A DNA stretch of 64,000 nt from an uncultured bacterium (GTDB taxonomy: Bacteria > Muiribacteriota > Ozemobacteria > Ozemobacterales > Ozemobacteraceae): NCBI GenBank assembly GCA_964428355.1, contig CAYRYU010000004.1:3261-67260 (forward strand), given 5' to 3'. Shown piece after piece: positions 14,424 through 58,884 of the stretch (position 1 is its first letter; the number at the start of each line of letters is the position of its first letter). The position numbers were made by a program, and so were the translations under genes. Under the pieces are notes generated by a model. That model had not been told where the DNA came from. It made no database searches and was given only the letters and a program-made list of their open reading frames with translations.

Positions 14424-14436
14424 CATCGGGAGAAGC

Positions 14437-17660: not shown

Positions 17661-17763
17661 GGGTTGCAATCCTCTCCTCTTTGGAAGATGGGCAAATGAT
17701 ACGAAAGGGAGCTACCGATGGCAAGCATTCCGGGAGGCCGCCGTCGCGATCCTGGGAATGCCT

Positions 17764-22714: not shown

Positions 22715-23124
22715 CTCTTCTGTTCTTCGGCAAGAAGGTCATTCACGGCCAGTTCCGTCACAGCGCCCTGGACGATCTGTTTCAGGCCCTTCTGGACATC
22801 GGGCATGGGGGCGGGTTGGAAAGAGCCTTCCGGGAGGCCCTCATCGGGAGATCGGCCCGACGCCTGAGCCGGGCCGTCCACCCCTGATTCCGTTTCCGAA
22901 GACGACCCCTGTCCCAGGCGAAATCCTGGACTGGCCGGTGGGGCAGCCGACCGAGCGGGCATCTCAAAGCTGCTCGAGGAAGCCACTTCCCTCCGGGGCT
23001 GTTCAGGAACAGGTGCTTCGCCCCCGCAGCCCAACAGCCAACCCCCAACGAGAAGGAGTGAAAGGAAAAGCGCGGTTCCGGAAAACCCCCGCTGAAGCTT
23101 CGCCCTCCTCGCCCTTTCAGTCAT
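22681..23124 (-). CDS. Hypothetical lipoprotein in the pseudopilin operon
   Basis: 147 aa; signal peptide with lipobox LLLVGGWLLGCGG; Ser/Pro/Ala-rich middle region. Confidence 0.5.
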   Translation of the reverse strand: MTERARRAKLQRGFSGTALFLSLLLVGGWLLGCGGEAPVPEQPRREVASSSSFEMPARSAAPPASPGFRLGQGSSSETESGVDGPAQASGRSPDEGLPEGSFQPAPMPDVQKGLKQIVQGAVTELAVNDLLAEEQKRWRAWREGEGQ

Positions 23125-26400: not shown

Positions 26401-26433
26401 TTTGAATTCCCTCCTGAAAAATCCAGTCAAAAT

Positions 26434-27069
26434 CTACTTTGCAGTTTCGGGTTGCCGGTTACAGGAATCCTCTTTTCCTTTCTTCCCTGACGCGGGGGGC
26501 AGAGGATCGACTCCGTACATGAACCATTGGCCTTCGATCCGGCAGCCGTAACCGGCGGCTTTGGCGATGACCTGAAGAACGGCCCGGCATGGAACCCCGA
26601 AAAAACGGCACGAGACCGGGGTCTTGTCGCCCCGTTCAGGCTCGATGCGAAGGCTTGCCCTTTTCGCGATGAAGTGAAGGACGGCATCGAGGCTGACTTC
26701 CCTGAAATCCATCGTCACCCGTTCCGATTCCGATGCGCCCGGAAGGGAGGGGAATGGAATCGCCCCACTTTCCCACGGCACATCCCTGAAAACCCATATC
26801 CCGTCGATTTCTTCCAGGAGCGACCCGGTGGCGGTCGCGACCAACCGGAATCCGTCAGGACCCGGCTTTGGGGAAAGACCGATGGGGATTGCGCCGCGGA
26901 TTTTCTTGCCGATCGCGACGAAAGAGAACCCGGAAGCTTGGGAAATCCTTCCGAGGAGCTCGATTCCGGGCGGAATCGGGTTGACCTCCTCCCGTTCTTC
27001 AGCCCGGGCAAGACGAGGGAGGGTTCCCAGGACAAGGACGAGCAGGAAAATGAGGCTTCTGATTCTCAT
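26434..27069 (-). CDS. Secreted protein with secretin/TonB N-terminal (STN)-like domain
   Basis: 211 aa; signal peptide MRIRSLIFLLVLVLGTLPRLARA. The C-terminal VTMDFREVSLDAVLHFIAKRASLRIEPE ... fits the short STN-domain pattern (xDFxxxxLxxVLxxIAxxxGLxI). Confidence 0.5.
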   Translation of the reverse strand: MRIRSLIFLLVLVLGTLPRLARAEEREEVNPIPPGIELLGRISQASGFSFVAIGKKIRGAIPIGLSPKPGPDGFRLVATATGSLLEEIDGIWVFRDVPWESGAIPFPSLPGASESERVTMDFREVSLDAVLHFIAKRASLRIEPERGDKTPVSCRFFGVPCRAVLQVIAKAAGYGCRIEGQWFMYGVDPLPPASGKKGKEDSCNRQPETAK

Positions 27070-27132: not shown

Positions 27133-28995
27133 ATGGGATATTCAGTCGAAGAAGTGATCGCCCTCCTCGACTCGGCGGACCATTCGACGAAGGCCTTCGC
27201 GCTCCAGTTCCTGATCAGGAACCTTTCCCTGACGGGGGATACCAAGGTCAGGGAGAAGGTCGACCTCCTGCTCCGCGACGATGATGTCACCATCCGCTTC
27301 TGGGCACGCAAGCTCGCCGAATGCTGTGAGCGTCTGGAGCGCAAGGAGGAGGAACTATCCCAGGGAAAACCTGCGGCTTATGGTGACGAGCTTCCGGCCG
27401 CCCTGGCGCCTGGAGACCTGGACCGGCTCTTCTCCGACCTCGTGAAGGCGGCCACCGGGAAGGACGGAGTCGAGATCCTCAAGGAGATCCTGACGCATGA
27501 TTCCCCAGGCCTCTCCGCGCGCCTCGTCGAATACCTGAAGGGTTGCCGGGATGTCGTGCAGGTTTCCTTTCTGACGAAACAGATCGGCCTGCGTTATCCT
27601 TCCCCCGAAACCCTGGTTGCCCTGGCCCCCTACCTCACCCACGAGGACGATCGCGTTGTCGCGAACACCATCGAAGGGATCGAAACTTCCGAGGATCCCA
27701 AGGTCGTCGCCCTCTTCGCCCAGCTCCTGAACCACCGGAGCCACCGCGTCAGGGGAAACGCGGCCCAGGCCATATCCAGATTCGATCCTGAGGCCGCCAG
27801 AGGCGTGGTTTCGAAGATGATTGGCATGCGGGAGCGACCGAACTTCGTAATCGCCGCCTGTCACGCCGCCAAGCAGATGAAGGACCGGTCCTTTCTTCCC
27901 GCCCTCCTGGCGTTGACCGATGACACCTGGGCTTCCGAGGAAGCGACCGGGGCTATCCTTGCCCTGGTTGTCGATGACGCATTTTCCGAAATGGAAAAGC
28001 TGCTCAAATCGCGGCCCCTCGATGTCCGTGCGGATTCCCTCCTGAAAACGCTTTGCGAGCGAGCCGAAGCGATCCGGAAGGGCTTCTCGAAACCCGATCC
28101 GGGTTTGAAATCATCGGGGGCTGGGGAACCGGGAAACCCGAACCAGGGCCTCTTCGGCCAGGACCGGGACGAAAACCGGATCTTCGATTTCCAGGTCCTC
28201 GAAAGAAAGATATTGGCGCTCGAGGAAGCGATCAACCTCGAGCAGGGTCAGGCGATGGCCCTCGAAAACCGCATCGAAGCCTTCGGACTTTTCTCCCGGA
28301 TCATCTACAGGCCACAGGAAAGCGAGATTTCCCTCATCTACTCCGAGACCAGATACGAACCTTTCTGGGACGTCCGTTTCCGGACCTTCATCGATTATTC
28401 CCGGCTGCGGGAGGCCGTCCTTCCAACCGACAAGCCTGTCGCGGAAGTGAAGATCGGCGGGCAGATAATCAAGGCCACGGATGGGAAGGTCAGGCTCAGC
28501 CTGGGGGAGCACTGTTCCGAGGAGAGCTGCCACGAGGTTTTCATCGACGCGTGTTCCGGAAAACGGGTCGACCTTTCGGTTCATGCAGCGAACCCGAAGC
28601 ACGAGATCGGGACTCCCGAGGAACTGCACGTAGCCGACTTGATTGTCCTTCCCGCAAAAGTGAAGGCCTCGGTGATCATGCGTGAGCTTCTTGCCGAGTT
28701 CGTGAAACCCGTAAAAGCCGATGAGATCAACGGTGAGAAGATCACGATCGAGCGGTTGAACCTGATGTTCAGGCCGATACACGCCTTCGAGTTCCAGTGG
28801 GGGCAGAAAACGGCTGTTCTGGAGATCGATGCGCTGACCGGTGCGATTTCCGCCGGCCGCGCCGTTAAGGAGCGGTTCCAGGCCGTATTCTCCACCGATA
28901 AGCTTTTCGAAATCGGATCGGAAGTCTTCGGGTTGGTGGTTCCCGGAGGGGAGATCGCCCTGAGACTTGCCCGCGCAGTAATGAAAAAGGGTTGA
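27133..28995 (+). CDS. HEAT-repeat (PBS-lyase-type) protein with unknown C-terminal domain; first gene of the phosphatase operon
   Basis: 620 aa. The N-terminal ~300 aa consist of HEAT-like repeats (VRGNAAQAISRF..., DDRVVANTIEGI...). The C-terminal half has no recognisable motif. The stop overlaps the start of the next gene. Confidence 0.7.
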   Translation: MGYSVEEVIALLDSADHSTKAFALQFLIRNLSLTGDTKVREKVDLLLRDDDVTIRFWARKLAECCERLERKEEELSQGKPAAYGDELPAALAPGDLDRLFSDLVKAATGKDGVEILKEILTHDSPGLSARLVEYLKGCRDVVQVSFLTKQIGLRYPSPETLVALAPYLTHEDDRVVANTIEGIETSEDPKVVALFAQLLNHRSHRVRGNAAQAISRFDPEAARGVVSKMIGMRERPNFVIAACHAAKQMKDRSFLPALLALTDDTWASEEATGAILALVVDDAFSEMEKLLKSRPLDVRADSLLKTLCERAEAIRKGFSKPDPGLKSSGAGEPGNPNQGLFGQDRDENRIFDFQVLERKILALEEAINLEQGQAMALENRIEAFGLFSRIIYRPQESEISLIYSETRYEPFWDVRFRTFIDYSRLREAVLPTDKPVAEVKIGGQIIKATDGKVRLSLGEHCSEESCHEVFIDACSGKRVDLSVHAANPKHEIGTPEELHVADLIVLPAKVKASVIMRELLAEFVKPVKADEINGEKITIERLNLMFRPIHAFEFQWGQKTAVLEIDALTGAISAGRAVKERFQAVFSTDKLFEIGSEVFGLVVPGGEIALRLARAVMKKG

Positions 28996-31799
28996 GGCCC
29001 GATTCCTTGGGCGGCTCCTTCCGAAACTGGGTCCTGATCGTCCTGTTTTTCGTCGCTTTGCCCGGCTTTTTCGCGGATCGGGCATTGACCATCCTCCGGG
29101 ACGAGTCGAACCGGAAGGAGCGGGAGGAACTCTTCCAGGATATGGAAGACGTCCTTCACCGGATCCTCCGGAGGGGTGCGCCGGAGTTTTCGGTGAAAGC
29201 CCTGGTCGACCGGGCATTCAAATACGGCCGTTCCGAAAAACTGCTTCTGCAGCTTCTCGAGCGGCTCCAAAAGTCGTATCGAAATCAATGGGAGTTCTTC
29301 CTTTTCGACCGGTCTGGAAAACCAGTTCCCTTCGGGGGAAGTCTTCCCGACAAGATTTCCGCCCGCCAGAGGGTTTTCCGGGCTCTCCTGGAAGCGAAGT
29401 TCGGGGGAAAGACTCCGTCCAAGACCGATGAGAAGCTCTCCCAGCAGATTCTTGGCGACAAATCCGCGATACTGAATCTTGCCAAAAGCCGGGGACACCT
29501 CCGGAAGCTGGGAAGCCCGATCCGTTACTCTTTCGGTGGTCTCTGGGAGATTCCCGGCGGCGGAAGCAGGAAGTTCCTTCTGGTCATGGTCCGGAAAGAT
29601 GGTTTCCCCTCTTTGCAACTTCTGAAGCAGGCCGTCAAAGTCGCGGGGGAAAAATGCCGGAAATTCTTCGACCTCACCCTGGTGGGAGATGAGCGAAGTC
29701 CGTCATTTGCGAAGCTTCCGGAGGAGGTCCGGGAAGTCCTGGCGGGTTCCAGTGCAAGGCAGGACGTTTTCGTCCGTGGAGCTTTCCAGGGCGCTTTCCT
29801 TGCCTGCCAGGGGGGAATGACCGCCCTGGCCTCGAACCGGAACCCCCTTTCGGCTGGGAAAACCATGGACGATCTTCGGGTCCTCGTGTGCGGGCTGGGG
29901 ATGTTCTTCGCTCTGGTCCTTATGAAACTGGTCGTGATAGGGAATCCGACCGAGATCTCCCTGCGCTGGGCGATACCCTTTCTCATCCTCGGCGCGACAC
30001 TTCCCGCCCTTGGTTACCTCGGAATGAGCATGACCGAACAACGGAAGCGGGTCCTCGAAAAGGAAACCTACGAAGCCCATCGGAATCTCGAAAACAGCCT
30101 GGTAAGGATCGACCAGGGCTTCTACCGTGAACTGGAAACATTGGCCCAGAAATACCAGGAAATCCTTGCCGAATTCTGCCAAAACCCCCTCACCCTGGGT
30201 ATGGAATCCGGTTCTGCGTCCGCTGTCCCCGAAATTGCCCGGGAAGCCTACATCTTCGATCAGGACGGTAAGATATCCCGGACGCTGAAATCGAATGCCG
30301 ATCACCCGGCCGATTCGAAGGCCCTTGCGGGGGGGTTCGTGGCGAAACTGACCGATGCCGTGTACGGAAGGGCTCCGATCGAGACTTTCGAGGATCCGAT
30401 CCTCCCTCACTACCTCAAACACCTGGGCTGGTTCACCGAGATCAAGCTGCTTGACGAGTACCTTTCGCAGTTCGTCGAAATGAGACCCGTTCCCCAGACG
30501 GGAGGGATGCTCGGAATCTTCGTGAGCCATCTCCTCCCCAAGCTCGTCCGTCTCCACCTCCGGAAAGTGCTGAGGAACCCTGCGGACCGTGGAAACGCCC
30601 CGTTCGCAATCGTGGCCTTCGATGGGGAAACCCTGCTGGGCTCGATCCCGCGTTCTTTCCTTCGAAACCCAGACGGAATGCGCATTGCCGAAAGGGTTCT
30701 CCAGACCGGGAAAGCCGTTGACGGGACGATTCTCAACCCCACCGGGCAGCGGCTGCTCCTGACCGCTTTTCCCGGTCGCAGGCTGGACGGGTTCATCCTG
30801 GTTGCCGGAAGCGACCCGGAACCCCTCAACCTGGGAGACCATCTCCTTGTTGACTGGACCTGGAAAACCGCTGGGGTTCTCATCCTGATCGCGTTTTTTT
30901 CCGCGGGTTTCCTCGTCAGGAAGATCCTGGGGGCGCTGAGGGTTCTCACGGGAGGAATCGACCGGATCCGTTCGAAGGATTTCCTGATGGAACTGCCTTT
31001 GGAGGGGACCGACGAGTTCGCGCAGCTCGCCAGGGGAATAGAAAAGGCGGGAGTGACGCTCGAGGAGATATTTTCGTCCCTTCCAGTCCAGGAAACGCTG
31101 GTCCGATGCGAGCCGTTCAAACACCCAAACATCCGGACCGGGAGCATCTTCTTCCCCTGCGAAGAGCCGGGGGGTGACTTCCTGGACGGGTTCCCGACTT
31201 CCGATGGGAAGTTCCTGTTCGCGATAGGCGATGTCCTGGGGGAAGGATGGCAGACGACCCTGGTGACAGCGGCCATACGGATGGGCCTGCGTGTTTTCGC
31301 CGAACGCGGATTCGCCTCTCTTACAGATCTTGGTCACCGATTGAACCGGCATTTCATAGGTTTCCGGGGTTCGAACCGCCGGATGACGATCCTCCTGGGA
31401 CTTCTCGACCCTGACAATGGTGATCTGGAGTGCGTGGGGGGAGGCCATTGCCTTCCGATCCTGCTCGGGCGGGACGGCCCAGCCTGGCTCCCTCGGGCGG
31501 GACTTCCACTCGGTTCGACCGGAAAGAAGGCCATGGAGGCATTTTCCCGGCGCCTTTCACCCGGCGACTCGCTGCTGTTGTACACCGACGGATGGGCGAA
31601 AACCTCCAATCCCGCTTCCGAACCACTGGGTTACGAAAGGTTTCTTCGGATCGCGGGGGATTTGAAAGGAACATCCCCTGATGAGAAGCTTCTGGACCTG
31701 GAAAAAGGGATCATCGAATCGGGGTTTTCAAAATCCCCTGAAGATGATAGGTCGGCCCTCCTCATCTCCTTTGGTAGGGAAAGGGAGGGTGGGAAATGA
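28992..31799 (+). CDS. Membrane sensor with HAMP and PP2C-type (SpoIIE / RsbU family) phosphatase domain; phosphatase signature degenerate
   Basis: 935 aa with N-terminal TM, large periplasmic region, second TM block and a HAMP-like segment. The C-terminal PP2C domain has GGDFLD, TILLGLLDPDNG, GGGHCLPILL and LLLYTDGW, but IGDVLGEG where canonical enzymes have GDVSG(H/K)G. Confidence 0.8.
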   Translation: MRPDSLGGSFRNWVLIVLFFVALPGFFADRALTILRDESNRKEREELFQDMEDVLHRILRRGAPEFSVKALVDRAFKYGRSEKLLLQLLERLQKSYRNQWEFFLFDRSGKPVPFGGSLPDKISARQRVFRALLEAKFGGKTPSKTDEKLSQQILGDKSAILNLAKSRGHLRKLGSPIRYSFGGLWEIPGGGSRKFLLVMVRKDGFPSLQLLKQAVKVAGEKCRKFFDLTLVGDERSPSFAKLPEEVREVLAGSSARQDVFVRGAFQGAFLACQGGMTALASNRNPLSAGKTMDDLRVLVCGLGMFFALVLMKLVVIGNPTEISLRWAIPFLILGATLPALGYLGMSMTEQRKRVLEKETYEAHRNLENSLVRIDQGFYRELETLAQKYQEILAEFCQNPLTLGMESGSASAVPEIAREAYIFDQDGKISRTLKSNADHPADSKALAGGFVAKLTDAVYGRAPIETFEDPILPHYLKHLGWFTEIKLLDEYLSQFVEMRPVPQTGGMLGIFVSHLLPKLVRLHLRKVLRNPADRGNAPFAIVAFDGETLLGSIPRSFLRNPDGMRIAERVLQTGKAVDGTILNPTGQRLLLTAFPGRRLDGFILVAGSDPEPLNLGDHLLVDWTWKTAGVLILIAFFSAGFLVRKILGALRVLTGGIDRIRSKDFLMELPLEGTDEFAQLARGIEKAGVTLEEIFSSLPVQETLVRCEPFKHPNIRTGSIFFPCEEPGGDFLDGFPTSDGKFLFAIGDVLGEGWQTTLVTAAIRMGLRVFAERGFASLTDLGHRLNRHFIGFRGSNRRMTILLGLLDPDNGDLECVGGGHCLPILLGRDGPAWLPRAGLPLGSTGKKAMEAFSRRLSPGDSLLLYTDGWAKTSNPASEPLGYERFLRIAGDLKGTSPDEKLLDLEKGIIESGFSKSPEDDRSALLISFGREREGGK

Positions 31800-34700
31800 C
31801 CCGCGGTCTGGCAGGGGAACCAAGGAACCGTTGGGGGCTCCCCGCATGGTTCCTCTTGGTAATCCTTTTCTGGCTTCCCTTCGAATTCCTGTTGATGAAC
31901 GGACTGCACCGGTCACATGAAGCCTTGGTCGAAGGAGCGGATGGGATCGTCCGGAACCTCCTCAGGGGAAAGATCCTCGAGTTCAGATACCTTCTCCAGG
32001 CGGAAAACGCCCTTTCCGCGAGAATGAAAGTCGCGGTCGAGGTTGCCAGGACCTCCGGCTCTCCGGAAGAATGGTTCGGACGGGTGAAAGGGGCGCTGGG
32101 AGATTTCCCCGCGGGTTCCTTCGAACTGCTCTTGACCAATGGAAGAGAGGTCATACCGGTCACCCCCGGCTGGGATCCTGCGACACTCTCGCATTTTCTG
32201 GGGATCACCATCGAAAAGGCGGAATGCTTCTCCAATACCACACTGGCGGCGGCCTACCTTCGAAAACATATCTCGGACGCGGAATTCTTCGGGGTGGAAC
32301 GTTTCTCAAAATGGAAATGGATCCCTCTTCCCGGAAAGCAGGGATTCCCCAACCAGGTTTTCGATCGAAACTGGCTTCCGGATACGGTTTTCACGATCTA
32401 CCGGACACCGCGGAATACCTGGGGCGCTTTCGGCCGGGTTGGGGAGGAGGGTTGGACGTATCTGATCCGGTTCCACAGACAGAACCTTCCGGAGGGCTTC
32501 CTGTTGGGGATTTCCGACCAGGCGGCCCGCGAGCGGGGAATTCCGGTTACACGCGAAGGTTTCGGGCCCCCGGTTCCGGAAGAGTCGAAGCCCGGTTGGT
32601 TGAGCGAAATCCATGAGGCAATTTCCGGCAGGGGAGTGAGTCTGCGGGAGTTCGATGAAAAAGCGGGCTGGCTTGTGGGGCGCGGAAGGATTCCCCGGAG
32701 CCTCTGGGCTTTTCTGATCCTTGCGCATATCGCGAACTTCTTTCTGAGCATCGCAGCTCTGGGCGGGGTTTTCCGGCTTCTCCAGGGGGAAAGTTATGAC
32801 CGGTTGGCGGTTTCGAGGAAGGTTTTCCTCGGTTTGCTCGGAGGCGCGGGGTTGCCGCTGGTCTTCGCCCTCATCGCAACGGAGGGGGCAACGGGTGCCC
32901 GTATCTTCCGCGAAATCCAGAAAAGCCAGTTGGAAATGGACCAGTCCCTGCGGCTGATCGAGTCGGAGTTCGAGAAGTTCACCCAGGAGATCGGCCAGGA
33001 TCACCGGGAGGACGCGAAGGGGATAGAATACCCCTGGGACCCGGTTCGCGGGGAGAGATGGGTCGACCAGATGTCCACCCGACATGAGGTGATTTCCCAG
33101 ATTGAGGTGATTTCGTCGGCCGGGGTCAGGCTGACTGCCCGCGGACCCTTCTCCTGGTCGTGTTATCGTGCGTCCCGTCTTCCGAGAGAACCTCGGGAAG
33201 AACATTTCCGGAGGTGGTCGAGGCGGGGGTTCCTGTTTCTCAAGGAAGACCTCGACATGCTTTCCCTCGATGATCCCGGTCAGCCCTCCCCAACCAGTGA
33301 CAAGCTTTTCCGGCTCGTAACGGAGCTTGCGAAGAACAACCCAAAGATGATCAAGCTGAGGTTGATCGAGGTCCTAGGGAAGAGGGTCTGTGCGGCGGTG
33401 AACGGAATCGGGGACACGGGCTCCGAGGAATCGTCGGGAGGCGGTGACGCCCTGATCGAGGTGGCTTTCAAGGGACGCGATGCCGAATTCTTCCAGGACA
33501 TCCTGGTCTCGCTCGGGTTGCTCAAGCCGGTCCAGTTCGGAATGTTCAGGGGCCTTTCATTTTCCGACGTCGTTCGCGACAAGACAGGGCGGGCGCAGTT
33601 CTTCGTCGTGATCTTCCACCGGGTCTCCGACCTGACTGAGAAGTTCCTCTACCAGGTCGGCTCCCGCAGACTGTTTCCCGACCGGTACTCCTTCCTCGGA
33701 ATCTCGATGTTCTACGCCAAGGTGGATTTCGGAGGGGGCCTGGAAGAGAGCCGGAGGCTCATGGTGGAAGACCTTTTCACCGAGATCGGACAGAACTTCC
33801 ACGGGATCCTCCCCGACGAGGAGGGCTATCCCCGGCTGTTCGCGATCAGCCGGGGGCGGGGCACCCCTGATTACACTCTCGCCCTTTCCCTTCCCATGGC
33901 CGAAATCGCCAGGTCGATAATCCAGGAGAGACGGCTGCAGATTTCCTTCCTTCTTTTCCTGCTTCTTGCGCTGATCGGAATCTCCTGGTGGCTTCGGCGG
34001 TTGCTGTTGAAGCCGCTGGGCAACCTCCAGACCCTGGTGAACGCCATGGTCAACGGGACCTACGAAGGCCTCCGGATCGAACCCGGGATAGGGGAGCTGG
34101 GCACCCTGGCAGGCTTGTTTGCCGACACCCTCGACGGAATCCGGCAGATGGACATGGCCCGGATCATCCAGGACCAGCTCCTCCCTTCCGCCCCGGTCGA
34201 GGCAGGGGGATTCCGGATGGCCGGGAAGTCGCTGATGATGTCCCAGGTCGGAGGGGACTATTTCGACATGATCCCCCGCGGGAAGGACCGTCTTCTTCTC
34301 GTGGTCGGGGATGTATCCGGACATGGGCTTTCCGCCGCGATCATCGTGGCGATGATGAAATCGGGGCTGACCGCTCTCGCGGAGACCGACCTGGAACCCA
34401 ACGATATCCTCCAGCTGATCAATGGCGTGATGTTCAAGACGCTGGCGAGGAAGAAGATGATGACCGTTTTCCTCGGTAGCCTGGACGTAATCGGCGGCCG
34501 CTTCACCTACACGAACGCAGGCCACAACTTCCCCTACCTCCGCCAGCAGTATGGGGACGGGACATTCCTCAAGCAGGCGAATCTCCCGCTGGGCGCAGTC
34601 GTGACCCGAAAGTACAAGGTTGATTCGATAGTCCTGGGCAAGGGTGATCTCCTGATCCTTTACTCCGACGGAATAACCGAGGTGGTCAACCCTGCCGGAA

Positions 34701-34861
34701 AGATCCCGGGTTATGGGGGGGTGAAGGAGTTTTTGGATTCGGTGGAATCGAGAGACCCGCTGGTGGTTGTGCCCGCCGTGATCGAGTTCGCCCGCGGGTT
34801 TTCCCAGGGTGTCCCCTTCCAGGACGACCTCACCGTTCTTGTACTGAATCGCCTCGGATGA
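31796..34861 (+). CDS. Membrane sensor with HAMP and canonical PP2C-type (SpoIIE family) phosphatase domain
   Basis: 1021 aa, start overlapping the upstream stop (ATGA). Two TM blocks and a HAMP-like linker. The PP2C motifs are GGDYFDM, VVGDVSGHGLSAA, TYTNAGHNFPYL and LLILYSDGITE. It is a paralog of the preceding gene. Confidence 0.85.
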   Translation: MTRGLAGEPRNRWGLPAWFLLVILFWLPFEFLLMNGLHRSHEALVEGADGIVRNLLRGKILEFRYLLQAENALSARMKVAVEVARTSGSPEEWFGRVKGALGDFPAGSFELLLTNGREVIPVTPGWDPATLSHFLGITIEKAECFSNTTLAAAYLRKHISDAEFFGVERFSKWKWIPLPGKQGFPNQVFDRNWLPDTVFTIYRTPRNTWGAFGRVGEEGWTYLIRFHRQNLPEGFLLGISDQAARERGIPVTREGFGPPVPEESKPGWLSEIHEAISGRGVSLREFDEKAGWLVGRGRIPRSLWAFLILAHIANFFLSIAALGGVFRLLQGESYDRLAVSRKVFLGLLGGAGLPLVFALIATEGATGARIFREIQKSQLEMDQSLRLIESEFEKFTQEIGQDHREDAKGIEYPWDPVRGERWVDQMSTRHEVISQIEVISSAGVRLTARGPFSWSCYRASRLPREPREEHFRRWSRRGFLFLKEDLDMLSLDDPGQPSPTSDKLFRLVTELAKNNPKMIKLRLIEVLGKRVCAAVNGIGDTGSEESSGGGDALIEVAFKGRDAEFFQDILVSLGLLKPVQFGMFRGLSFSDVVRDKTGRAQFFVVIFHRVSDLTEKFLYQVGSRRLFPDRYSFLGISMFYAKVDFGGGLEESRRLMVEDLFTEIGQNFHGILPDEEGYPRLFAISRGRGTPDYTLALSLPMAEIARSIIQERRLQISFLLFLLLALIGISWWLRRLLLKPLGNLQTLVNAMVNGTYEGLRIEPGIGELGTLAGLFADTLDGIRQMDMARIIQDQLLPSAPVEAGGFRMAGKSLMMSQVGGDYFDMIPRGKDRLLLVVGDVSGHGLSAAIIVAMMKSGLTALAETDLEPNDILQLINGVMFKTLARKKMMTVFLGSLDVIGGRFTYTNAGHNFPYLRQQYGDGTFLKQANLPLGAVVTRKYKVDSIVLGKGDLLILYSDGITEVVNPAGKIPGYGGVKEFLDSVESRDPLVVVPAVIEFARGFSQGVPFQDDLTVLVLNRLG

Positions 34862-35454: not shown

Positions 35455-35671
35455 ATTCCCTCCGCCTTCTTTGTCCTTAAGGACAGGTTTCTTCAAGTTC
35501 TCACATTATTGAAAACGTCCGAGTCGGCAGGGGTGTTGAAGTTTTCGCGAAGGGTGGAAATTTTCCCCCCGGGCCGGTGTATCCCGCCCGTGATGGTGGA
35601 GATTGAGGGAAATGAAGCATTCCCGCTTCAACCGGGCGTCAGAAAGGTGGGAAGTGTCGCTTTCGGGGCCC

Positions 35672-37747
35672 TCAGCGGAGGTCGACGACGAGGCATGTGA
35701 AATCGTCGTGAAGGTTGTCCGGTCCGGCGAATCCACGGACTTCCTTCAGGATGGCCTCCGCTGTCGCCTGTGGTGGAAGGGATGATGTCTCCCTGAAAAG
35801 TTTCCGGAGACGGTCCTCACCGAAGAAATCCCCTTGTTTGTTTCGCGCTTCCAGGACCCCGTCGGAAACGAGGAGAAGGCGGTCGTTGGTTGAGAAGCCC
35901 GTTGTCCGGTTCGTCAGTGGAACATCGTTACGCAAACCAAGGGGTGCGGATTCCGAAGGATGGGAGGCGATCTCCCCCATTTCTCCACCAAGTACAAGGA
36001 CGGCGGGATGACCAGCGTTCATGATGGTGATGGTTCCCGCTCCCAGGTCGATCCGGCAGTAGACCATCGTCACGAAAACCGACAGGCGTTCGAGGCGGGG
36101 TCCGATGTCCTTCTGAAGTTCTGCAATGATCGCTTCGACCCGGGGAAGGACCCCGTGCCCGCTTCCGACGAGCCGGGTAACGATCCTCAGGACGGCCTCC
36201 TTGGTCGATGCCCCGATCAGGGCCGCCGAGATTCCCTTCCCCATCACGTCTCCGATCACGATATCGATGATGTGATCGTTCAGGATGATGAAATCCGTGA
36301 AATCCCCGTCGACCAGGAGGGAGGGGCATGAACAGAGGCCGAACTCAGCCTTTTGGAGATTCCGGGGAGGCTCGCTTGCCAGCAACGTCTGCTGGATCTG
36401 GACGGCGGTATTCTCCTCCTGGAGACGCACCTGCCTCAACTCCTCCTCGATCCGTTTCCGGGGGGTTATCACCATCGCGATTATCATCCCGAACTGGACC
36501 TCGCCTGCGGGGTTCCGAACCGGGGCGAAACGCATCTCGTACCAGTCTTCCTTGAAAAACACTTCCATTGTGCTGTCCCTGCCTTTCAGGACTTCGCGGA
36601 TTCCCTGGTGGATCCCGGGAAAACGGTCTTCCGGGAAGAAATCCACGACAGGCTTGCCTTCGAGGGACTTCCGGAATCCCTTCAGGTTGCGAAGGTTCTC
36701 CCCGGCCGCCATAACGAATCGGATGTCTTGGTCGAAGAGAAGCACCATTCCGCTCGTGAAGTTCCGCATCAATGCACGGTATTTGGAATCCGTCGTCTGG
36801 AACTTCCTTTCCGCCCGGAAACGAAGCAGGGAGTTGGCGAACAGTTCGGCGGTAAGTCGGAGAAGGCTCAGGTCTTCATCGGCCCAGGCCCGGTCTGCCT
36901 GGCATCCATCCACTCCGAGATATCCGATGGTCCTTCCCTTGACTTTCAGCGGAAGACCCAGATGGGTGTGAATCCCCCGGCTCCGAAGGTATTCGATCTC
37001 CTGCTGGGACATCGGGGGGGAAACCAGGCACGAAGGCGAGTTGCACCTGCTCATGATCCCGGATGCCTTCGTGTTTTGGATTACGGAAAGGCTGATTCCC
37101 GAGATCCTGCCCTTGCGGCTGAAAATTCCCGAAAGGCTCCATTCGAAGACCTTTTCGACGGTCTTCTCGTCTTCTGAAAGCAGGAAAAGAAAGGCGTGGT
37201 CGGCCTGGATGTACCGGCCGATATTTTCCAGGCTGGAGGTAATCGTCGCCTCGATGTTCTCCCCGTCGATCATCAGGAATCCCGCGGAAAGCTTGCAGAC
37301 AAGAGCTTCGATCTCGAACCTCTTCTGGAAGATTGAAAGAAGCGGGTGTTCCAGGAGCGGATCCCGGCAGACAGCAAGGAATACATCCCCGTCTCCGAAG
37401 GGAACAGGAGAGAATTGTACCTGGAGGGGTTTGGCGGTTCCCTCGGAGGTGACGAAGGTGAAAATGTTCTTCCGCGAGGACGGCGGGATTCCCGTTTGGA
37501 AGAAGTGTTTCGCGGAATCGCTTTCCGCCGATCTCAGAAGGTCTGCCCAGTGGGCTCCGATGAGGTTGTGGGGTGTACGCCTGAGGGTCTTCTCGAAAAT
37601 GGGATTCACCAGCGTGATGATCCCGTTGAACCGGACTGCGAAGGCAGGTTGGTCGAGGGAATCGAGGAAATCCTGGAACTCCGGGGTGGACGTGGCCTCG
37701 GGATCGTGGCCCCAGTTTGGCCCAATTGCTTTCAGGGGGAATTCCAT
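35672..37747 (-). CDS. Cytoplasmic PAS-GAF-PAS PP2C-type phosphatase (RsbU / SpoIIE family)
   Basis: Sensory PAS/GAF-like regions (e.g. GRTIGYLGVDGCQ), then the C-terminal PP2C domain with VDGDFTDF, VIGDVMGKGISAAL, ITIMNAGHPAVL and LLLVSDGVLEA. The start at MEFPLK (37747) or at the track M1 (37786) is uncertain. Confidence 0.8.
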   Translation of the reverse strand: MEFPLKAIGPNWGHDPEATSTPEFQDFLDSLDQPAFAVRFNGIITLVNPIFEKTLRRTPHNLIGAHWADLLRSAESDSAKHFFQTGIPPSSRKNIFTFVTSEGTAKPLQVQFSPVPFGDGDVFLAVCRDPLLEHPLLSIFQKRFEIEALVCKLSAGFLMIDGENIEATITSSLENIGRYIQADHAFLFLLSEDEKTVEKVFEWSLSGIFSRKGRISGISLSVIQNTKASGIMSRCNSPSCLVSPPMSQQEIEYLRSRGIHTHLGLPLKVKGRTIGYLGVDGCQADRAWADEDLSLLRLTAELFANSLLRFRAERKFQTTDSKYRALMRNFTSGMVLLFDQDIRFVMAAGENLRNLKGFRKSLEGKPVVDFFPEDRFPGIHQGIREVLKGRDSTMEVFFKEDWYEMRFAPVRNPAGEVQFGMIIAMVITPRKRIEEELRQVRLQEENTAVQIQQTLLASEPPRNLQKAEFGLCSCPSLLVDGDFTDFIILNDHIIDIVIGDVMGKGISAALIGASTKEAVLRIVTRLVGSGHGVLPRVEAIIAELQKDIGPRLERLSVFVTMVYCRIDLGAGTITIMNAGHPAVLVLGGEMGEIASHPSESAPLGLRNDVPLTNRTTGFSTNDRLLLVSDGVLEARNKQGDFFGEDRLRKLFRETSSLPPQATAEAILKEVRGFAGPDNLHDDFTCLVVDLR

Positions 37748-37795
37748 TTCGAAGAGCCTCCCGGTCAATTCAGAGCACGGCCCCATTTAATATTG

Positions 37796-37812
37796 TGGTA
37801 CCCAAGGTACCA
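37796..37812. promoter_or_regulatory. Perfect 7-3-7 palindrome TGGTACC-CAA-GGTACCA in the divergent promoter region (candidate operator)
   Basis: Lies immediately upstream of the PAS-GAF-PP2C gene (minus) and 150 nt upstream of the STAS gene (plus). It is flanked by the AT-rich tttaatatt, and this is the lowest-GC spot in the region. Confidence 0.4.
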
Positions 37813-37963
37813 TGCAAGAAGACAACCAGGGAATATCATGGGGATTCGACCAAAAATGCGGAAATTTTCCCTTCTTTCGGGGAGAATTTCCCTTTACATC
37901 AAGGGGATGCGCCGAAGGGGAAATCGTGGTATTATTCCGCAAAATCCATTGGAAGTGCAGGCA

Positions 37964-38323
37964 ATGGTCGAACTCGAAACGCAAGAAGTCACCAAGAATT
38001 GCATTCTCATCAGGCCCAAGGGATACCTGGAAAGGCTCCTGGGGGAGAAGCTGAAGCAGACCGTTCACGATGTCGAGGGGCGGGGTTTCAAGATATACAT
38101 CTTCGATTTTTCGCAGGTTTCGATGATCAACTCTCTGGGAATGTCGGGTCTGATCGATTCGATCGACACGATCGAGAGTGCCGAAGCCATGGTCTGGTTC
38201 GCCGATATCGACCCCGTGGTTTATCCGATCCTCGAAGCGGCAGGGGTGCTCGAGATGGTTCCAGATGTGCTGACTCTTGCCAAAGCACTGGAACGCGCAA
38301 AATCCGAAGCCGACCGCCCCTGA
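37964..38323 (+). CDS. STAS-domain anti-sigma factor antagonist (SpoIIAA / RsbV-like)
   Basis: 119 aa from the internal ATG (MVELETQEVTKNCILIRPKGYL...); STAS fold pattern with the conserved phosphorylatable Ser region FDFSQVSMINSLGMSGL. The upstream 200 aa of the track ORF is antisense to the PP2C gene and was discarded. Confidence 0.7.
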   Translation: MVELETQEVTKNCILIRPKGYLERLLGEKLKQTVHDVEGRGFKIYIFDFSQVSMINSLGMSGLIDSIDTIESAEAMVWFADIDPVVYPILEAAGVLEMVPDVLTLAKALERAKSEADRP

Positions 38324-41573: not shown

Positions 41574-42113
41574 TCAGGAGTTTTGTGGAATCTGCGACTC
41601 CAGGGCTTTTTCGAAGATTCCCAGGTCACCGACGGACCAAAGGCAGAAGATCACTTCCCGGAGGCTGGATGGACCCGCTGAAAGGAAATCCCGCGTGGTG
41701 GAAATCATGATCTTGGCGCAGATGTCCTTCGGGAAGCCGAAGATCCCCGTGCTGATGGCTGGAAAGGCGACGGTCTCGATTCCGAGTTCCGAGGCCCTTC
41801 GCAGGCTGTTGAGGGTGGCGTTCTTGAGTTTCATGTCTTCATTGCCCTCCCCTAGACGTGGGCCGACGGCATGAATGACGTATTTTGCCTTGAGTCGTCC
41901 TCCCCCGGTCACCACTGCCTGCCCGACGGTGGTTCCGCCGAGCTGGTAGCACTCGTCCTGGATCGTTTGTCCGCCCCGGGCAAGGATCGCCCCGGCGACC
42001 CCACCTCCAAGGACGAGCCTGTCGTTGGCTGCATTCACGATCGCGGCAACTTCCAGGTCGGTTATGTCCCCCTGGATGAGGCGGATTGTCTTTCCTCCCA
42101 CTGTCCTGTCCAT
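41574..42113 (-). CDS. Macro-domain protein (ADP-ribose binding / O-acetyl-ADP-ribose deacetylase, YmdB / MacroD-like)
   Basis: ATG at 42113 (MDRTVGG) with AAAGGA RBS. Macro-domain motifs IVNAANDRLVLGGGVAGAI, VIHAVGP and ISTGIFGFP. Confidence 0.75.
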   Translation of the reverse strand: MDRTVGGKTIRLIQGDITDLEVAAIVNAANDRLVLGGGVAGAILARGGQTIQDECYQLGGTTVGQAVVTGGGRLKAKYVIHAVGPRLGEGNEDMKLKNATLNSLRRASELGIETVAFPAISTGIFGFPKDICAKIMISTTRDFLSAGPSSLREVIFCLWSVGDLGIFEKALESQIPQNS

Positions 42114-42194
42114 GGTCGTTTCCTTTCTATCGCCCGTGCAGTTCCAATTATCGATGATATCATGGGTTTCCGGGGGGGGCAAGGGCGGGGGCGC

Positions 42195-45100
42195 TCAAAC
42201 CGTTGTCTCATCGGCTGGGTTGAAGAGGTATGCCTCGACGGATCTCGTCTTTCCCTTAATGGGGGGGAGCTTGAGCCTCCGAAGGCCTTTCACCAGGTCC
42301 GCTCGGGAGGATTCCCCGACGAGACGGAAGGTCCCCTCCGCAACGACTACCCCGCCGACCGATCCGTGGTAGTCGGGAAGCACGGTTCCGTCCTTCGAAA
42401 CGCGCAGGGAGATGTCTCCAAGACGGGATGCGAGGTTGACCGTATCCCCGATGACGGTGTATTCGAGCCGGACCTCATCCGTGCCCATGATTCCAGCCAG
42501 GACAGGTCCGGAGACGATCCCAATCCCGAGGGGGTTTCCCCCGAGTTCCGGGATCTCGGCCATCCGCCTCCTCATCTCGACTGCGGCCTGGAGGGCGGCC
42601 CCCGCAGCTTCCCGGGGGCCTCCGAGTCGGCTGGGATGGAAAACCGCGAGAACCTTTTCGCCGATGAACTTGTCGATGTCACCCTTTCGGCCTCGGATGG
42701 TCCGTGCCATGGTTTCGAGGAAGCGATTGAGCGTGTGGACAAGGGTCCCCGGCGGGATGGTGGCCATCAAGTGCTTGAAATCGGCAATTCCAGCGAACAG
42801 AACGGTGACCTCGATGTTTTCCCCCTTCTGGGCCGAGTCGCCCCGCTCGCGGTCGCTCGCGGCGACGCGGACGGACTCCGAAACGAACCGGCTAAGGAGG
42901 CGACCTTCCTCCACCCCGGCTGCCATCGAATTGAAGGCTTTCGCGAGGCGTCCGAATTCCCCGCCCGTGCCCTCTTCGAGCCTCGTTTTGAAGTTCCCCC
43001 CCATGATCTCCCGCGCCGCATCCGAAAGGGCGAACACGGGAACCAGGAATCGTCGAGCGATGCTCCAGGCCAGGATCACCGAAAGAAGCAAGATGAAGGC
43101 CAGGAAAACCCGCTTCAGATCGCGGACCGCGTCCCCCTGCTCGAGGATTTTTCCGATCGGGATCTCTCCGATCAGGAGGTTCGTCTTGAGCGCGTTTCCG
43201 GATACGCCCGTCATGAGAAATTCCTCTCCGTTCCTGTCTACCCTTTTCGACCAGGTATTCTGGCTGGACCCTGTCAGGATAGCCAGATCGACGTATTCCG
43301 GGGGGGGCGGTGTGGTCAAAGACTTGAATTTGACCACGTTTTCATCACGAGGTGTCGGATAGACCATCGGAGGCCAATAGATTACTCCAGGAAACCTCTT
43401 GAAACCGATGTTGTATCGTGGTCCGAACGGACCACACGATCGGGAGGATTTCCCGAGGGCGTTGAAAAGCTGGAAATCGACGGCATCCTTGTTCAGATTC
43501 GTCTGAAAGCTGTACCGGGGATATTTCCCGTACCAGAGGTGGGTGCGCAGGAAGCACTCCTGGCCGCTGAACGTCACCATGTCCGACATCGCCTTCGGCG
43601 CAAGGAGCATCTCCGCCCCTCTTTCGGGTGGGATGATGGCCATGAGGAGTGCCCTGAACTCTTCGATTCCGGCTCCAAGCAGGAGGTTCTCGGTTTCCCC
43701 TGCAAGGCCTTTTCCGGCGGTGAATTCGGGGTTCAACTGTTTCAATGGAGGGGTACTGAACTCGTTCATCAGCGACATGACGAGGGAATTGTTCTTCTGG
43801 TCCTCCTCCTCCTCGGGATCGGCAACCTCCCCCTCCGGTTCGTCCCCACGGGTGTTGAAGCTGAGAAAGAACCGGCCGGGACCAGTCAGAAGGATCCGAT
43901 ACACGGGGTATCCCATGTTCCGCGATGCCACGTAGAAACGCTTCAGGAAAGGAGTCCCCTTGGTCCGCATTTCCTTCTTGTTCAACTTCTCGAGCTCGTG
44001 GAACTCCCGGACGCATCCCTTCCGCCTGGCAAGGGTGGTGGTAACCCTGTTCGCCCAGCCGAGGTACAGGTCCCTGGCCTCGTCGAGCGCACGGAGTGAG
44101 TGTGCCAGGGACTGTGCCCTGCTGGCTTCTTCCCGGAGCCGTGCTTCCTGGAATGACCGCTCCGTGACGAGTGCCGCGAAAGCGATCGCGGGAACGACAA
44201 GCAGGAGGAACATACCCGCAAGCTGGACGAAAACCGAGATCGCAAGGGGTTCCTTCCGGAATACGAACTTCCGCATCATCCAGGTCCCGAGGAGGAACCA
44301 GAACAAAGTCAGCATGGAGGCTGACGTCAGCAGGGTCTTGAACGGTGAATCACGGGTCGGGACAGGGCGTGCCGCCACGACGAGAAAGGAGTTTTCCCTC
44401 AAAACAGGTTCCGAGGTGATAAGCCAATCATTTGAAACGGACTGGCTCGCCACCGGGGAGTCAGTTTCGAGCCATCGCTTCAGTTCCGGGTAGCGGAGGA
44501 AGGTCCGGTCGTCGTCCGTCCACACCTTGCGGTTTCCGGAAGCGACATCCGTCTGGACCACCGCCAGCTTGCAATCGTGGCTCTGAAGGTTCTTCATCAG
44601 CAGGCGGACTGCCAGATCAAAGGTGAGGGTTTCGGGATCGAGAAGGAAGGCGGCTCCCCCACGGAACGTCGCCCGGGTGAAACCTTTCAGGTCCTTTCCG
44701 ATCAGGTTGCTGTCGGGGCCCTTCCGAAGTTCCCTGAAAAAGGCGGGATCGAAGAAGGGGTGGACCAACAGATATCTTGTCTTGCCAAAGGGACTGACAG
44801 GTATGAGATTGTCGGTTGCCGTATCCCCCAGTTCCCTGAGGTCGTCGATCTTGAGCAGGGAGGTCCAGCTTCTGCGGAACTCACCATCCAGATACGGGTC
44901 CACGACTCCGTAGAGCAGGGTCTTGTAGTAGGCCAGGAAGTCCCGCCACTCCACCCGGTTGAAGGGAATGCTCCGGCCTATCGTGGGAAACAACCTGGTT
45001 CCCAACCGGTTGCCCAAGGTTCCCACCCCTGTTTCAAGCTGGGGGCAATGAAGGAACATCGAACAGGAGATACCGGGGAAGAGCTTCTGGAAATCCTTTC

Positions 45101-48100
45101 CGCGGCCCGCGAGGAATTCGAAAATCCTTTGGGGTCCGTGGGAGGGGTCGAGTCCCGCGGCCTCCGCCGTTGCCAGAGTTTTCCTGAGGAAAAGGGTTGC
45201 CTGGGTCTTCGGATCGATCGAGTTGGCGGCCAGCTTCACAGTTTCCTTCAGTTCCCCGAGATGCTGGTTTCTCCAGCGTTCGAGGTCCCTCTGGTCGTTT
45301 GCCCAGAGCGCGTAGATAAGGAGGGCGGGGGGAACCACCAGGAGGAATAGGAGTTGCCAGATTGCATGAAGATGGGTTTGGCCCCCGCTTTGTCGGGCGG
45401 CCCCGGGGGAAACCTGCGGAGTCGGGCCCTCGATCGCTTCCTCAGGGGAAGGGGAAACGCCGGATGGGGATCCTCTCACCTGTGGGGAAGCAGGCGCCGG
45501 GCCGCCGGCTTGGCAATCCAAGGGTGGCACTGACCTCGCTCCGGTGCCCGAAGGCGGCTTGGATTCGCCCGCGGGAACCGGCTCAGGAACATCAATGGGG
45601 GCCGATTTCGTCTCCGGCAGTGGGAGACCCGTGCAAGGTCGGGTGGGGGATTCCCCGCCGGTGCCCGCGCTTGATGAAGCCTCGCCCTCCTGGCGAGCTC
45701 CGTGCACGCCGCCCTCCCTGGACGTCAGGCCCGGAGAAGCCTCGCCCTCCTGGCGAGCTCCGTGCACGCCGCCCTCCCTGGACGTCAGTTCCCAGCAGTT
45801 GGGGTTTGAGGGGTCCTCCAGGGGGATGAAGGGGAAATCCTCCCCCGCGAGTTTCCTGACCTTGTCGGAACAGATGATGAGCCGGGCTTTTCCTTTTTTC
45901 GATGCCGCCTCCAGATCGTTCGCCCGTTTGAAGGGTTCCCCCAGGACGGTGAAGTCGAGCCGTTCGAGGGGATCTCCGAGGACCCCGGTGACGACCTCCC
46001 CGATCTCGATCCCGATCCCGATAAAGTATGGGAACCGCCCTGCAGCCTGCCGCTGGTCGTTGAGGTTCCGGTGCGCATCCATCATGTCGGATGCTGCAAA
46101 AAGGGCGCGTCTGACCATGGACTCCCCCTTGCCGGGGTAGAAAACCGCCTGGATCGCGTCTCCGATGAACCGGTCGATCGCTCCGCCGTGTTTCTGGATC
46201 GCCCGGGTCATTACCTGAAGGTGGCTGTTGATCAGAGCGAAGATTTCCTTCGGGGGGTGGGCTTCGGACATGGTGGTGAAGCTCCGGACATCCGAGACCA
46301 TCAAAACGACCTCACGGTGCCGGGGTTGACAGGCCTTGTCGAAATCGCCCTGGCCAACCACCTCTAGAACCTGGGGGGCGACGAAACGGCTCATCACGGT
46401 TCGCTCACGGAGCCAATCCGTCATCTGGTCGAGGGTCCGGCTCGCGTCTCCGATCTGGTCCGCCCGGTTTTCCCTTACCCGCACCTCGAGGTCTCCCGAA
46501 GCGATCCGGTCGAGTCCTGCGGTCATCCGAACCAGTGGGGAAGCCAGCCACCGAGAGAGAGCCGTCCCTCCAATGAATGTCACGACCAACAGCAGAAGGA
46601 TGGCTGACGCAATCTTTACCTTCTCGAAAAAAATGAAGGACTCGACGGGCTGGAAAGTCGTCACCGCGGTGAGGATGAACCCCGGCATGCGGGTGCTTCG
46701 CAGTGCGACCATGAAGTGCTGGGGATCAGGTGAGAACAGGGTTCCCCGGCGGACCTTCCGGGCGGCGAGGGCGGAAGCCTCATCCCTTTCCTGGATCGCC
46801 ACGGGTTCCAATCCCTGGGGTTCGTCCTTGAATGCCGCGAACCTGATTTTGGGATGGCCGGAGTTGACCCGACGGATCTCCTTCTCCAGAAAATCCCTGA
46901 AGACGGGCTCCTGATCCCAGAAAAGGAAGATGATGTTCCTGACCTTTCCTTTGGAAAGGATCTGGTTGAAATACCGGGTGGAGTGTCGGGAGCCCGCCTG
47001 GAAGAGGTGAAGCACGTTCGGGTCGCCCAGCAGTTCCCGGTTCCGCTTGTAGAAGCCCTGATAGCTCATCGCCATTGCGTTCCGGAACCTCGTGATCTTC
47101 GTCCAGGAAGGGGGCGGGGCGTCAGGGGAGTCCGTCACGGAGCCGCTGTTTCCGCCGAGCATTCTGACGAGTTCGAGGGAGATCACGAGGTGGAAAAGCT
47201 TCATGGACCACTGTGTCTCACCCTTGAAAATGCTGTCCGGGGGAAAGAAGAAGATGGCTTGGGGGCCTCCAAGGATCATCACGGCAGAGGGTTTGTCACC
47301 TGCAGGCTTTCCGTCCGTGGTCTTCCTTCGGGGCCACCTTTGGAAGACCTTTTCCTCGAGAAGTCGGTCGATGGCCCTCTCTCTGGATCCGCCGTCCAAA
47401 GAATCCAACGCGTCAAGGGCGGGTCCAAGGTCAGGATCGAGGGAGATGTTCCTGCAAGCCTGGAGGAAACGAAGGTTTTCCTGCATGCTTCCGGTGTCGA
47501 TCCTCTGGAGGGTCTGCTCCAGTTCGTCGCGCAGGGCGAACTCCGAGGTCGCGGAAAGGTCTTCGGAAAGCCGGATTCCGGCAGTTGCCATCAGGGTGAT
47601 CGGGATCGCGATCAGTCCGATGAACCAGAGATACAGCGAGGTCCGGATCCTGAAACCCCCAATCCTTCCGCGAAGATGAAGGAAGGCGAAAGTGGGCAAC
47701 CAGCAGAAAAGAATGCAACAGCCATACACGTTCGCGACCCCTTCAAGAATCGTGCAGGGCGGGCGGGGAATCCGGGACACAAGAACGCCCACATAACCGA
47801 TGATCGGATCCAGCGCGGTAAGGAAGAAACGGAACCCTCCCATTTCGATCGACTCTCCGAACTCGCGCGGGAAAAGCGAGACCTCTCCGACCTGGAATTC
47901 GGGTCGTCGTGGGGAAACGGTCATTCTGCGACGGAGCTTTTCGAGCAGACGCCTCATTCCCGGTCGTTGAAGGGCGGGGTGAAAGATCCCTGCTCCGGTA
48001 CCCCCGCGGCCTGTGACAGGGAACGGCAGGAAAGCCGGAAACATCCTTGGGGAGGAGGGGGGTACGTATTTCCCCCAGTTCCGGATCGCGGCCCGCAGAC

Positions 48101-55970: not shown

Positions 55971-55983
55971 TCTTTCGCTCCCT

Positions 55984-57345: not shown

Positions 57346-57366
57346 TTCGAATCTCCTTCCTGAATG

Positions 57367-58815: not shown

Positions 58816-58884
58816 CTTTCGGAATACTCCTGTTCTTTTTCACTGGGCCCGACCTCTGGGGCCGGCCGGGAGCGGGGTTCCGGG

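Follow-up and report, generated by a model that had tools for sequence, protein, structure and literature searches.

A phylum-restricted PP2C/STAS signalling module in an uncultured Ozemobacteraceae bacterium, probably the input side of a split partner-switching system

The locus described here lies in a 64,000-nucleotide stretch of DNA from an uncultured bacterium of the family Ozemobacteraceae (GenBank assembly GCA_964428355.1, contig CAYRYU010000004.1, positions 3,261 to 67,260), which is referred to below, at its full length, as the window. It encodes a single-domain STAS protein of the SpoIIAA/RsbV type and three SpoIIE-family phosphatases, namely two tandem membrane proteins (PP2C-A and PP2C-B) and a cytoplasmic PAS-GAF-PAS-PP2C protein (PAS-GAF-PP2C below) whose gene diverges from the STAS gene. 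The locus probably supplies the input to a split partner-switching system, of an ordinary kind that has been locally rearranged. An earlier note, made from the sequence of the stretch alone, had placed the weight on the divergent pair, reading PAS-GAF-PP2C and STAS as partners across a palindromic operator, TGGTACC-CAA-GGTACCA, in a neighbourhood of unusual wiring. Comparison of the window with fragments of related Riflebacteria genomes points to different partners for STAS. The conserved core appears to be a three-gene module of PP2C-A, PP2C-B and STAS, known so far from Riflebacteria alone, and the divergent arrangement with PAS-GAF-PP2C is best read as secondary, a by-product of local rearrangement.

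The principal evidence is gene order. PP2C-A, PP2C-B and STAS follow one another on the same strand, with a gap of ~90–250 bp before STAS, in six other Riflebacteria loci. The complete order is seen in Candidatus (Ca.) Ozemobacter sibiricus BY5 (L012), in an Ozemobacteraceae metagenome-assembled genome (MAG; L013) and in L015/L016; it is also intact in L011 (GCA_012517355.1), in the closest relative (L019, STAS identity 50%) and in the partial locus L020. Orthologs of PP2C-A (34–38% identity) stand at full length upstream of PP2C-B and STAS in L012, L013 and L015, and those of PP2C-B (35–43% identity) directly upstream of STAS in L011, L012, L013, L015 and L019. Paralogous loci show other layouts. 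In L004 and L008, STAS is divergent from an operon with a degenerate PP2C-A and an intact PP2C-B, and in L006 (7662–10339) 12 bp separate the STAS gene from the one before it, which encodes a 775-amino-acid HEAT-repeat protein. In the window, a gene for a 620-amino-acid HEAT-repeat protein precedes PP2C-A and is possibly an extra member of the PP2C operon, one that is not kept in the other loci. A link between this protein and the one in L006 was considered and set aside, as the two resemble each other at the repeat level only.

The identification of the small protein as RsbV/SpoIIAA-like is upheld by its Pfam domain, by alignment of its serine and by its predicted fold. The protein reaches 32.1 bits with Pfam STAS (PF01740), where the cut-off is 22.6 (E=1e-7), and the start codon at 37964, giving 119 amino acids, is backed by the N-termini of homologs, which favour it over the 155-amino-acid call in the Logan assembly. 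In a phmmer alignment with Geobacillus SpoIIAA, Ser57 of the motif INSLG falls on the phosphorylated serine, and this residue is invariant in 15 members of the STAS family. Within the subfamily, Gly20-Tyr21, Gly27, Ser57 and Gly59 are invariant and Asn56 and Trp78 nearly so. The AlphaFold2 model (mean predicted local distance difference test score, pLDDT, 93.8) has the alpha/beta STAS fold with Ser57 at the N-terminus of helix 2 (residues 57–72). Its best matches in the PDB are SpoIIAA (1thn, 1tid and 1th8; in complex with SpoIIAB), followed by RsbV (6m36) and TM1442, with template-modelling (TM) scores of 0.76–0.82. The protein is thus of a known fold and functional type, though divergent.

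The reach of the family was assessed by several searches. A word-based homolog search returned the query itself and nothing else, and an exhaustive HMMER search gave 77 relatives at E<=0.001, eight of them at E<=1e-10. A degenerate DNA pattern derived from the invariant STAS residues was then run against 185,579 species, each represented by a single genome. Six loci were found, with no random matches; five of them carry a Riflebacteria or Ozemobacteraceae annotation, and the other is a MAG. A scan of metagenomes with the same pattern added three further loci on short contigs. So far as found, the subfamily appears confined to Riflebacteria. The nearest outgroup protein, P0090 (L017/L018), is 23–30% identical depending on the alignment and shares the GYL and INSxG motifs. 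In L017 (9288–12455) it stands between a HATPase_c_2 kinase of 143 amino acids and a GAF-SpoIIE phosphatase, in the order kinase, STAS, GAF-SpoIIE, in an organism of 48% G+C for which no tie to Riflebacteria was found. Because P0090 sits in such a cluster, this single outgroup locus suggests that the STAS family descends from a canonical partner switch, with Ser57 as the kinase target.

The conserved partners of STAS, PP2C-A and PP2C-B, share one layout, in which four predicted transmembrane segments surround two large extracytoplasmic regions and are followed by a HAMP domain or HAMP-like linker and the PP2C domain. The two genes overlap by 4 nt. The motifs of PP2C-B are complete (GGDYFD, GDVSGHG, SDG and DD). 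PP2C-A keeps the metal-binding aspartates and has GEGW in place of GHG, both in the window and in L013, and its counterparts in L004 (5607–8450) and L008 (4777–7569) have lost the metal ligands entirely. These differences suggest that PP2C-A and PP2C-B may form a catalytic-plus-regulatory pair, and that in the paralogous loci the degenerate PP2C-A may serve as a pseudophosphatase partner for PP2C-B.

The third phosphatase has a different history. Its identity as an RsbU-like PAS-GAF-PP2C protein is secure from its domains (SpoIIE, PF07228, E=5e-41) and from its intact catalytic motifs (GDFTD, GDVMGKG, SDG and DD). Its start is almost certainly the ATG at 37747 rather than 37786, given a GGGAGG Shine-Dalgarno sequence 9 nt upstream, a database call of 691 amino acids (P0001) and an ortholog alignment that begins at residue 3. 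Only one ortholog was found, P0002 in a Ca. Ozemobacteraceae genome (locus L002, 55% identity). No STAS gene lies within 10 kb of the P0002 gene, which is 1.5 kb from a paralogous tandem HAMP-SpoIIE pair. In the window, the 3.1 kb between the stop of PP2C-B (34861) and the start of STAS (37964) hold two genes on the minus strand, PAS-GAF-PP2C and, downstream of it, an open reading frame (ORF) for a predicted secreted protein, called at 166 amino acids in L001. The latter ORF has no Pfam or NCBIfam match and is missing from all related STAS loci examined. Since PP2C-A, PP2C-B and STAS are unbroken in relatives, in the same order and orientation, this opposite-strand cassette is by parsimony a lineage-specific insertion or rearrangement. 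It sits upstream of the predicted STAS promoter and includes a control region of its own, with tandem GGARAWWTTCC sites; a search for repeats at its boundaries found none. The earlier description of a divergent pair therefore holds in part: the two genes do diverge across 216 bp, but they are not a conserved functional pair, because STAS orthologs in six other loci trail tandem PP2C genes and the PAS-GAF-PP2C ortholog has no STAS neighbour.

The DNA between the two genes was examined for regulatory signals. STAS appears to have a promoter to itself, also in loci with an unbroken operon, because an extended -10 element (TGnTAnnnT) is conserved 27–33 nt before the STAS ATG in nine loci (the window, L019, L020, L021, L011, L012, L013, L014 and L004), preceded in most of them by a GGGGGTGCATCC-like block. 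A consensus sigma-70 scan of the intergenic region gave no promoter, and the element is visible only by comparing loci. The palindrome of the earlier note is present exactly as described, in one copy in the window. However, the data do not support it as an operator shared by the pair. The window holds 68 perfect inverted repeats with 7-bp arms and 0–10-nt spacers, against 51 ± 9 in shuffled sequences, and 11 of them have a 3-nt spacer. Two of the 68 are fully intergenic, against ~4 expected from the intergenic fraction of 6%, so that there is no enrichment. Conservation upstream of orthologs, which the note had proposed as a check, is also wanting, as the palindrome is found neither upstream of the PAS-GAF-PP2C ortholog in L002 nor before any STAS relative examined. 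Further, it falls outside the conserved STAS promoter, at a distance of ~115 bp on its upstream side. The palindrome most likely arose by chance in the leader or promoter region of the PP2C gene. The intergenic regions have no Rfam match, and their folding z-scores (-1.3 and -0.8) do not indicate an unusually stable RNA fold.

A better candidate for a regulator-binding site of the PAS-GAF-PP2C gene is the near-palindromic motif GGARAWWTTCC. It occurs exactly three times in the 64 kb, against 0.1 expected from shuffles, and all three sites flank this gene, two of them as a pair 21 bp apart. In L002, a pair 22 bp apart (9849–9859 and 9871–9881) stands at a similar distance upstream of the ortholog, and none was found in eight other Riflebacteria loci. 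A sigma-54-like promoter for the same gene can be offered as a hypothesis only. The -24/-12 element is weak, matching 8 of 12 consensus positions, with its GC 67 nt before the PAS-GAF-PP2C ATG; its counterpart in L002, CGGCATGCAAATTGCG (9917–9932), has the GC 70 nt before the ortholog's ATG. Matches at 8–9 of 12 positions are common by chance, the window holding 63 of them, and neither a sigma-54 factor nor an activator protein was seen. If the element is real, the TGGTACC palindrome sits just downstream of its -12 part.

The proposed mechanism can be set out as follows. It builds on what the data show (domain content, conserved gene order, the insertion, the serine and fold of STAS, the STAS promoter and the motif enrichment), whereas phosphorylation itself, the kinase, the output, the pairing of PP2C-A with PP2C-B and the choice of phosphatase for this STAS are inferred. 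A GHKL (RsbW/SpoIIAB-type) serine kinase encoded elsewhere would phosphorylate STAS on Ser57. PP2C-A and PP2C-B, probably as a dimer, would sense periplasmic or membrane signals and dephosphorylate the phosphorylated STAS, and the PAS-GAF phosphatase may do the same on cytoplasmic signals. Several sensor phosphatases most likely feed one phosphorylated STAS. Unphosphorylated STAS would bind the unlinked kinase/anti-sigma factor and so free the target, a sigma factor or another effector. Mechanistic background on STAS-only proteins and on PPM/STAS docking is available (PMC8256260, PMC11418112), and many non-sigma outputs of partner switching are described in reviews (PMC8256260). Literature searches found no description of partner switching in Riflebacteria.

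Several observations weigh against this reading, among them the missing kinase. Pfam searches of the annotated genes of the window gave no HATPase_c or HATPase_c_2, Sigma70, Pkinase or genuine helix-turn-helix (HTH) domain, and the 107 remaining ORFs of at least 60 amino acids likewise gave no kinase, sigma or genuine HTH domain. A single HTH hit, PF24407, was discarded as a spurious overlap inside an ankyrin-repeat protein. Six-frame tblastn and phmmer searches of the window with the RsbW-type kinase from L017 returned nothing, and no cryptic kinase emerged among the unknown neighbours in the window, L004, L006, L008, L011 and L012 at permissive Pfam E-values. No kinase or sigma gene was found in ~150 kb of related loci either, which cover at least ten loci of the STAS subfamily, including three paralogous modules of one genome. 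Outgroup L017 alone has a kinase gene adjoining STAS, and no Riflebacteria locus examined does. The earlier statement that the window lacks an RsbW/SpoIIAB-type kinase, a sigma factor and a DNA-binding regulator is thus borne out by domain, ORF and six-frame searches, and a canonical kinase encoded elsewhere is an assumption of the split-system reading. Three further points count on the same side. The STAS protein misses the NCBIfam cut-offs for TIGR00377 (ant_ant_sig; 20.1 against 53.45 bits) and TIGR02886 (SpoIIAA; 27 against 114.75). That PP2C-A carries glutamate where histidine is usual, and is degenerate in L004 and L008, shows that the pair does not act as two simple enzymes. Finally, the PAS-GAF phosphatase is tied to this STAS by proximity in one genome only. 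The unusual wiring that the earlier note saw is not established, as scattered partner-switching genes are well known: rsbU, rsbV1, rsbV2 and rsbW are dispersed in Chlamydia, and rsbP of Bacillus subtilis lies outside the sigB operon.

Other explanations of the locus differ in what they make of the PAS-GAF-PP2C gene and of the missing kinase. That PAS-GAF-PP2C and STAS form a dedicated, kinase-free two-component unit, co-regulated through TGGTACC-N3-GGTACCA as a shared operator, is highly improbable. In its favour are the adjacent, divergent genes with the palindrome between them and the lack of a kinase in the window, but the pairing is unique to this genome, the palindrome occurs within chance expectation and is conserved upstream of neither the ortholog nor the other STAS genes, STAS has its own conserved promoter at a distance from it, and the invariance of Ser57 argues for phosphorylation. 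Taken together, the comparisons largely refute this idea. A doubtful, though less remote, proposal is that the PAS-GAF-PP2C cassette has nothing to do with STAS in function and came to its place by chance rearrangement, as an independent unit that is controlled through GGARAWWTTCC, is possibly sigma-54/activator dependent and acts on another substrate. GGARAWWTTCC accompanies the PAS-GAF-PP2C gene in each of two genomes but never the STAS loci, no STAS gene is close to the ortholog, and the ATG of both genes is preceded by a sigma-54-like element at nearly the same spacing. However, a functional link is hinted at by the tandem HAMP-PP2C pair that lies no more than a few kb from the gene in both genomes, convergence of phosphatases on one STAS is a known design, and the sigma-54 match is weak.

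It is also conceivable, if unlikely, that Riflebacteria have no RsbW-type kinase at all. Ser57 would then be phosphorylated by another enzyme, for example one of the Hanks type, as PknD phosphorylates Rv0516c in Mycobacterium tuberculosis, or an unphosphorylated STAS would act as a regulatory subunit or substrate mimic of PP2C-A/PP2C-B. The absence of a GHKL kinase beside any of the at least ten subfamily loci, the three modules of one genome included, speaks for this, as do the presence of a kinase in the outgroup locus, the drift of PP2C-A towards a pseudoenzyme and the paralogous STAS gene 12 bp downstream of a HEAT-repeat gene. On the other hand, absence from the flanks says little when such kinases are often unlinked, and the fold and serine environment closely match those of SpoIIAA bound to SpoIIAB. 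A related picture, distinctly unlikely as a whole, is a Riflebacteria-specific module in which heterodimeric HAMP-PP2C sensors, one of them drifting to a pseudophosphatase, would work with a dedicated STAS and without an RsbW-type kinase, Ser57 being served by another kinase class or STAS acting directly on the phosphatase pair or on a non-sigma target.

As the input side of a split partner switch, the locus would be a phylum-restricted member of a well-known PP2C/STAS kind. The B. subtilis systems RsbU/RsbP-RsbV-RsbW-sigmaB and SpoIIE-SpoIIAA-SpoIIAB-sigmaF likewise have a single-domain STAS whose helix 2 has a phosphorylatable serine at its N-terminus, and SpoIIE-family PP2C proteins with N-terminal sensors (PAS in RsbP; SpoIIE is a membrane protein). 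Convergence of RsbU and RsbP on RsbV parallels the proposed action of several phosphatases on one STAS. Unlike in B. subtilis, no kinase/anti-sigma or sigma gene is linked here, the conserved phosphatases are a tandem pair of ~1000-amino-acid, four-transmembrane HAMP proteins and the STAS protein falls below the NCBIfam cut-offs. The Rsb system of Chlamydia trachomatis (RsbU, RsbV1, RsbV2 and RsbW) also joins a membrane sensor PP2C to STAS proteins; RsbU acts on them there, with an output other than a dedicated alternative sigma factor (PMC8256260). RsbW is demonstrably present in that organism, whereas the tandem PP2C pair and the STAS-specific promoter have no parallel there. In Pseudomonas aeruginosa, SiaABCD and HptB-HsbR-HsbA resemble the locus in having a small phospho-switch protein under the control of a HAMP-PP2C membrane phosphatase (SiaA) or of a regulator with a PP2C, and non-sigma outputs such as a diguanylate cyclase; the window has a large cyclase gene 4 kb from STAS. 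The kinases of those systems (SiaB and the kinase domain of HsbR) are, in contrast, encoded beside the switch protein, Pfam does not class SiaC as STAS, and the matches to the NCBIfam SiaA model are weak, far below its cut-off. The outgroup L017/L018 shares the STAS with GYL and INSxG and has a GAF-PP2C adjacent; the canonical 143-amino-acid kinase is found only there.

Collectively, the comparison corrects a tempting misreading, that of a divergent pair and a palindrome as an operator-controlled unit, and assigns STAS to its conserved partners. The compact three-gene module and the candidate cis-regulatory motif are modest, usable entry points into the signalling of an uncultured phylum. Should RsbW-type kinases prove absent from the phylum, the module would offer a test case for STAS switches that need no kinase or are phosphorylated in another way.

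The positions of the features discussed above, and of other genes of the window, are collected in Table 1.

Table 1. Features of the window, with positions counted from its first nucleotide (aa, amino acids; TM, transmembrane; GC3, G+C content at third codon positions)
Feature	Position	Strand	Basis or remark
PP2C-A, 935 aa, 4 predicted TM segments, HAMP and SpoIIE-type PP2C	28992-31799	+	Pfam SpoIIE E=5e-27, TM scan
PP2C-B, 1021 aa, 4 predicted TM segments, HAMP-like linker, canonical PP2C	31796-34861	+	Pfam SpoIIE E=6e-41, TM scan
Predicted secreted protein, 166-180 aa	34954-35496 (gene caller start 35454)	-	Signal-peptide-like N-terminus
GGARAWWTTCC copy 3, GGAAATTTTCC	35556-35566		~100 bp upstream of secreted ORF
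PAS-GAF-PAS-PP2C cytoplasmic phosphatase, 691 aa	35672-37747	-	Pfam PAS / GAF / PAS_4 / SpoIIE
Palindrome TGGTACC-CAA-GGTACCA	37796-37812		49-65 nt upstream of PAS-GAF-PP2C start codon
Sigma-54-like -24/-12 element (hypothetical) TGGTTGTCTTCTTGCA	37813-37828	-	Weak match
GGARAWWTTCC copies 1 and 2	37860-37870, 37881-37891		Upstream of PAS-GAF-PP2C
STAS promoter block (predicted), GGGGATGCGCC then extended -10 TGGTATTAT (37927-37935)	37903-37935	+	Extended -10 lies 28 nt before STAS ATG
Single-domain STAS, SpoIIAA/RsbV type, 119 aa	37964-38323	+	Pfam STAS
HEAT-repeat protein, 620 aa	27133-28995	+	Pfam HEAT_2; stop overlaps PP2C-A start
NuoF-like flavoprotein	5-1312		[FeFe]-hydrogenase cluster
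Hydrogenase large subunit	1195-3087		[FeFe]-hydrogenase cluster
Two radical-SAM maturases, HydG- and HydE-like	3128-5630		[FeFe]-hydrogenase cluster
Aspartase/fumarase-family lyase	5620-7032		[FeFe]-hydrogenase cluster
Ankyrin-repeat protein	10969-12069	+	Pfam and GC3
Exo_endo_phos protein	12111-13262	+	Pfam and GC3
VTT/DedA protein	13253-13840	-	Pfam and GC3
GNAT acetyltransferase	14437-14904	+	Pfam and GC3
Histidine phosphatase	17133-17669	-	Pfam and GC3
Macro-domain protein	41574-42182	-	Pfam and GC3

The inventory of signalling genes given in the earlier note (three SpoIIE-family phosphatases, one STAS and one double cyclase) is matched in full by Pfam, and its description of a signalling-rich neighbourhood is shared here. 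The cyclase gene (42195–48821, minus strand) encodes a 2208-amino-acid protein with about eight predicted transmembrane segments, two HAMP domains and two class III cyclase domains. Four genes in a row on the minus strand (22681–27069), for proteins of 147, 720, 383 and 211 amino acids, diverge from the operon of the HEAT-repeat, PP2C-A and PP2C-B genes; none of the four has a Pfam match, permissive thresholds included.

The window has a G+C content of ~59%, and homolog searches together with its annotated relatives put it in the candidate phylum Riflebacteria, close to the family Ozemobacteraceae. Choosing the longest ORF mis-calls several genes in 10969–14904, 17133–17669 and 41574–42182, and the calls were corrected with Pfam and GC3. 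At one end lies an [FeFe]-hydrogenase cluster (5–7032). Towards the other, on the minus strand (54726–62545), is an apparent cluster for reductive pyrimidine or beta-amino-acid catabolism, with genes for dihydropyrimidine-dehydrogenase-like PreA/PreT subunits, an aldehyde dehydrogenase, a class III aminotransferase, a dihydropyrimidinase-like amidohydrolase and a beta-ureidopropionase-like CN-hydrolase (61673–62545).

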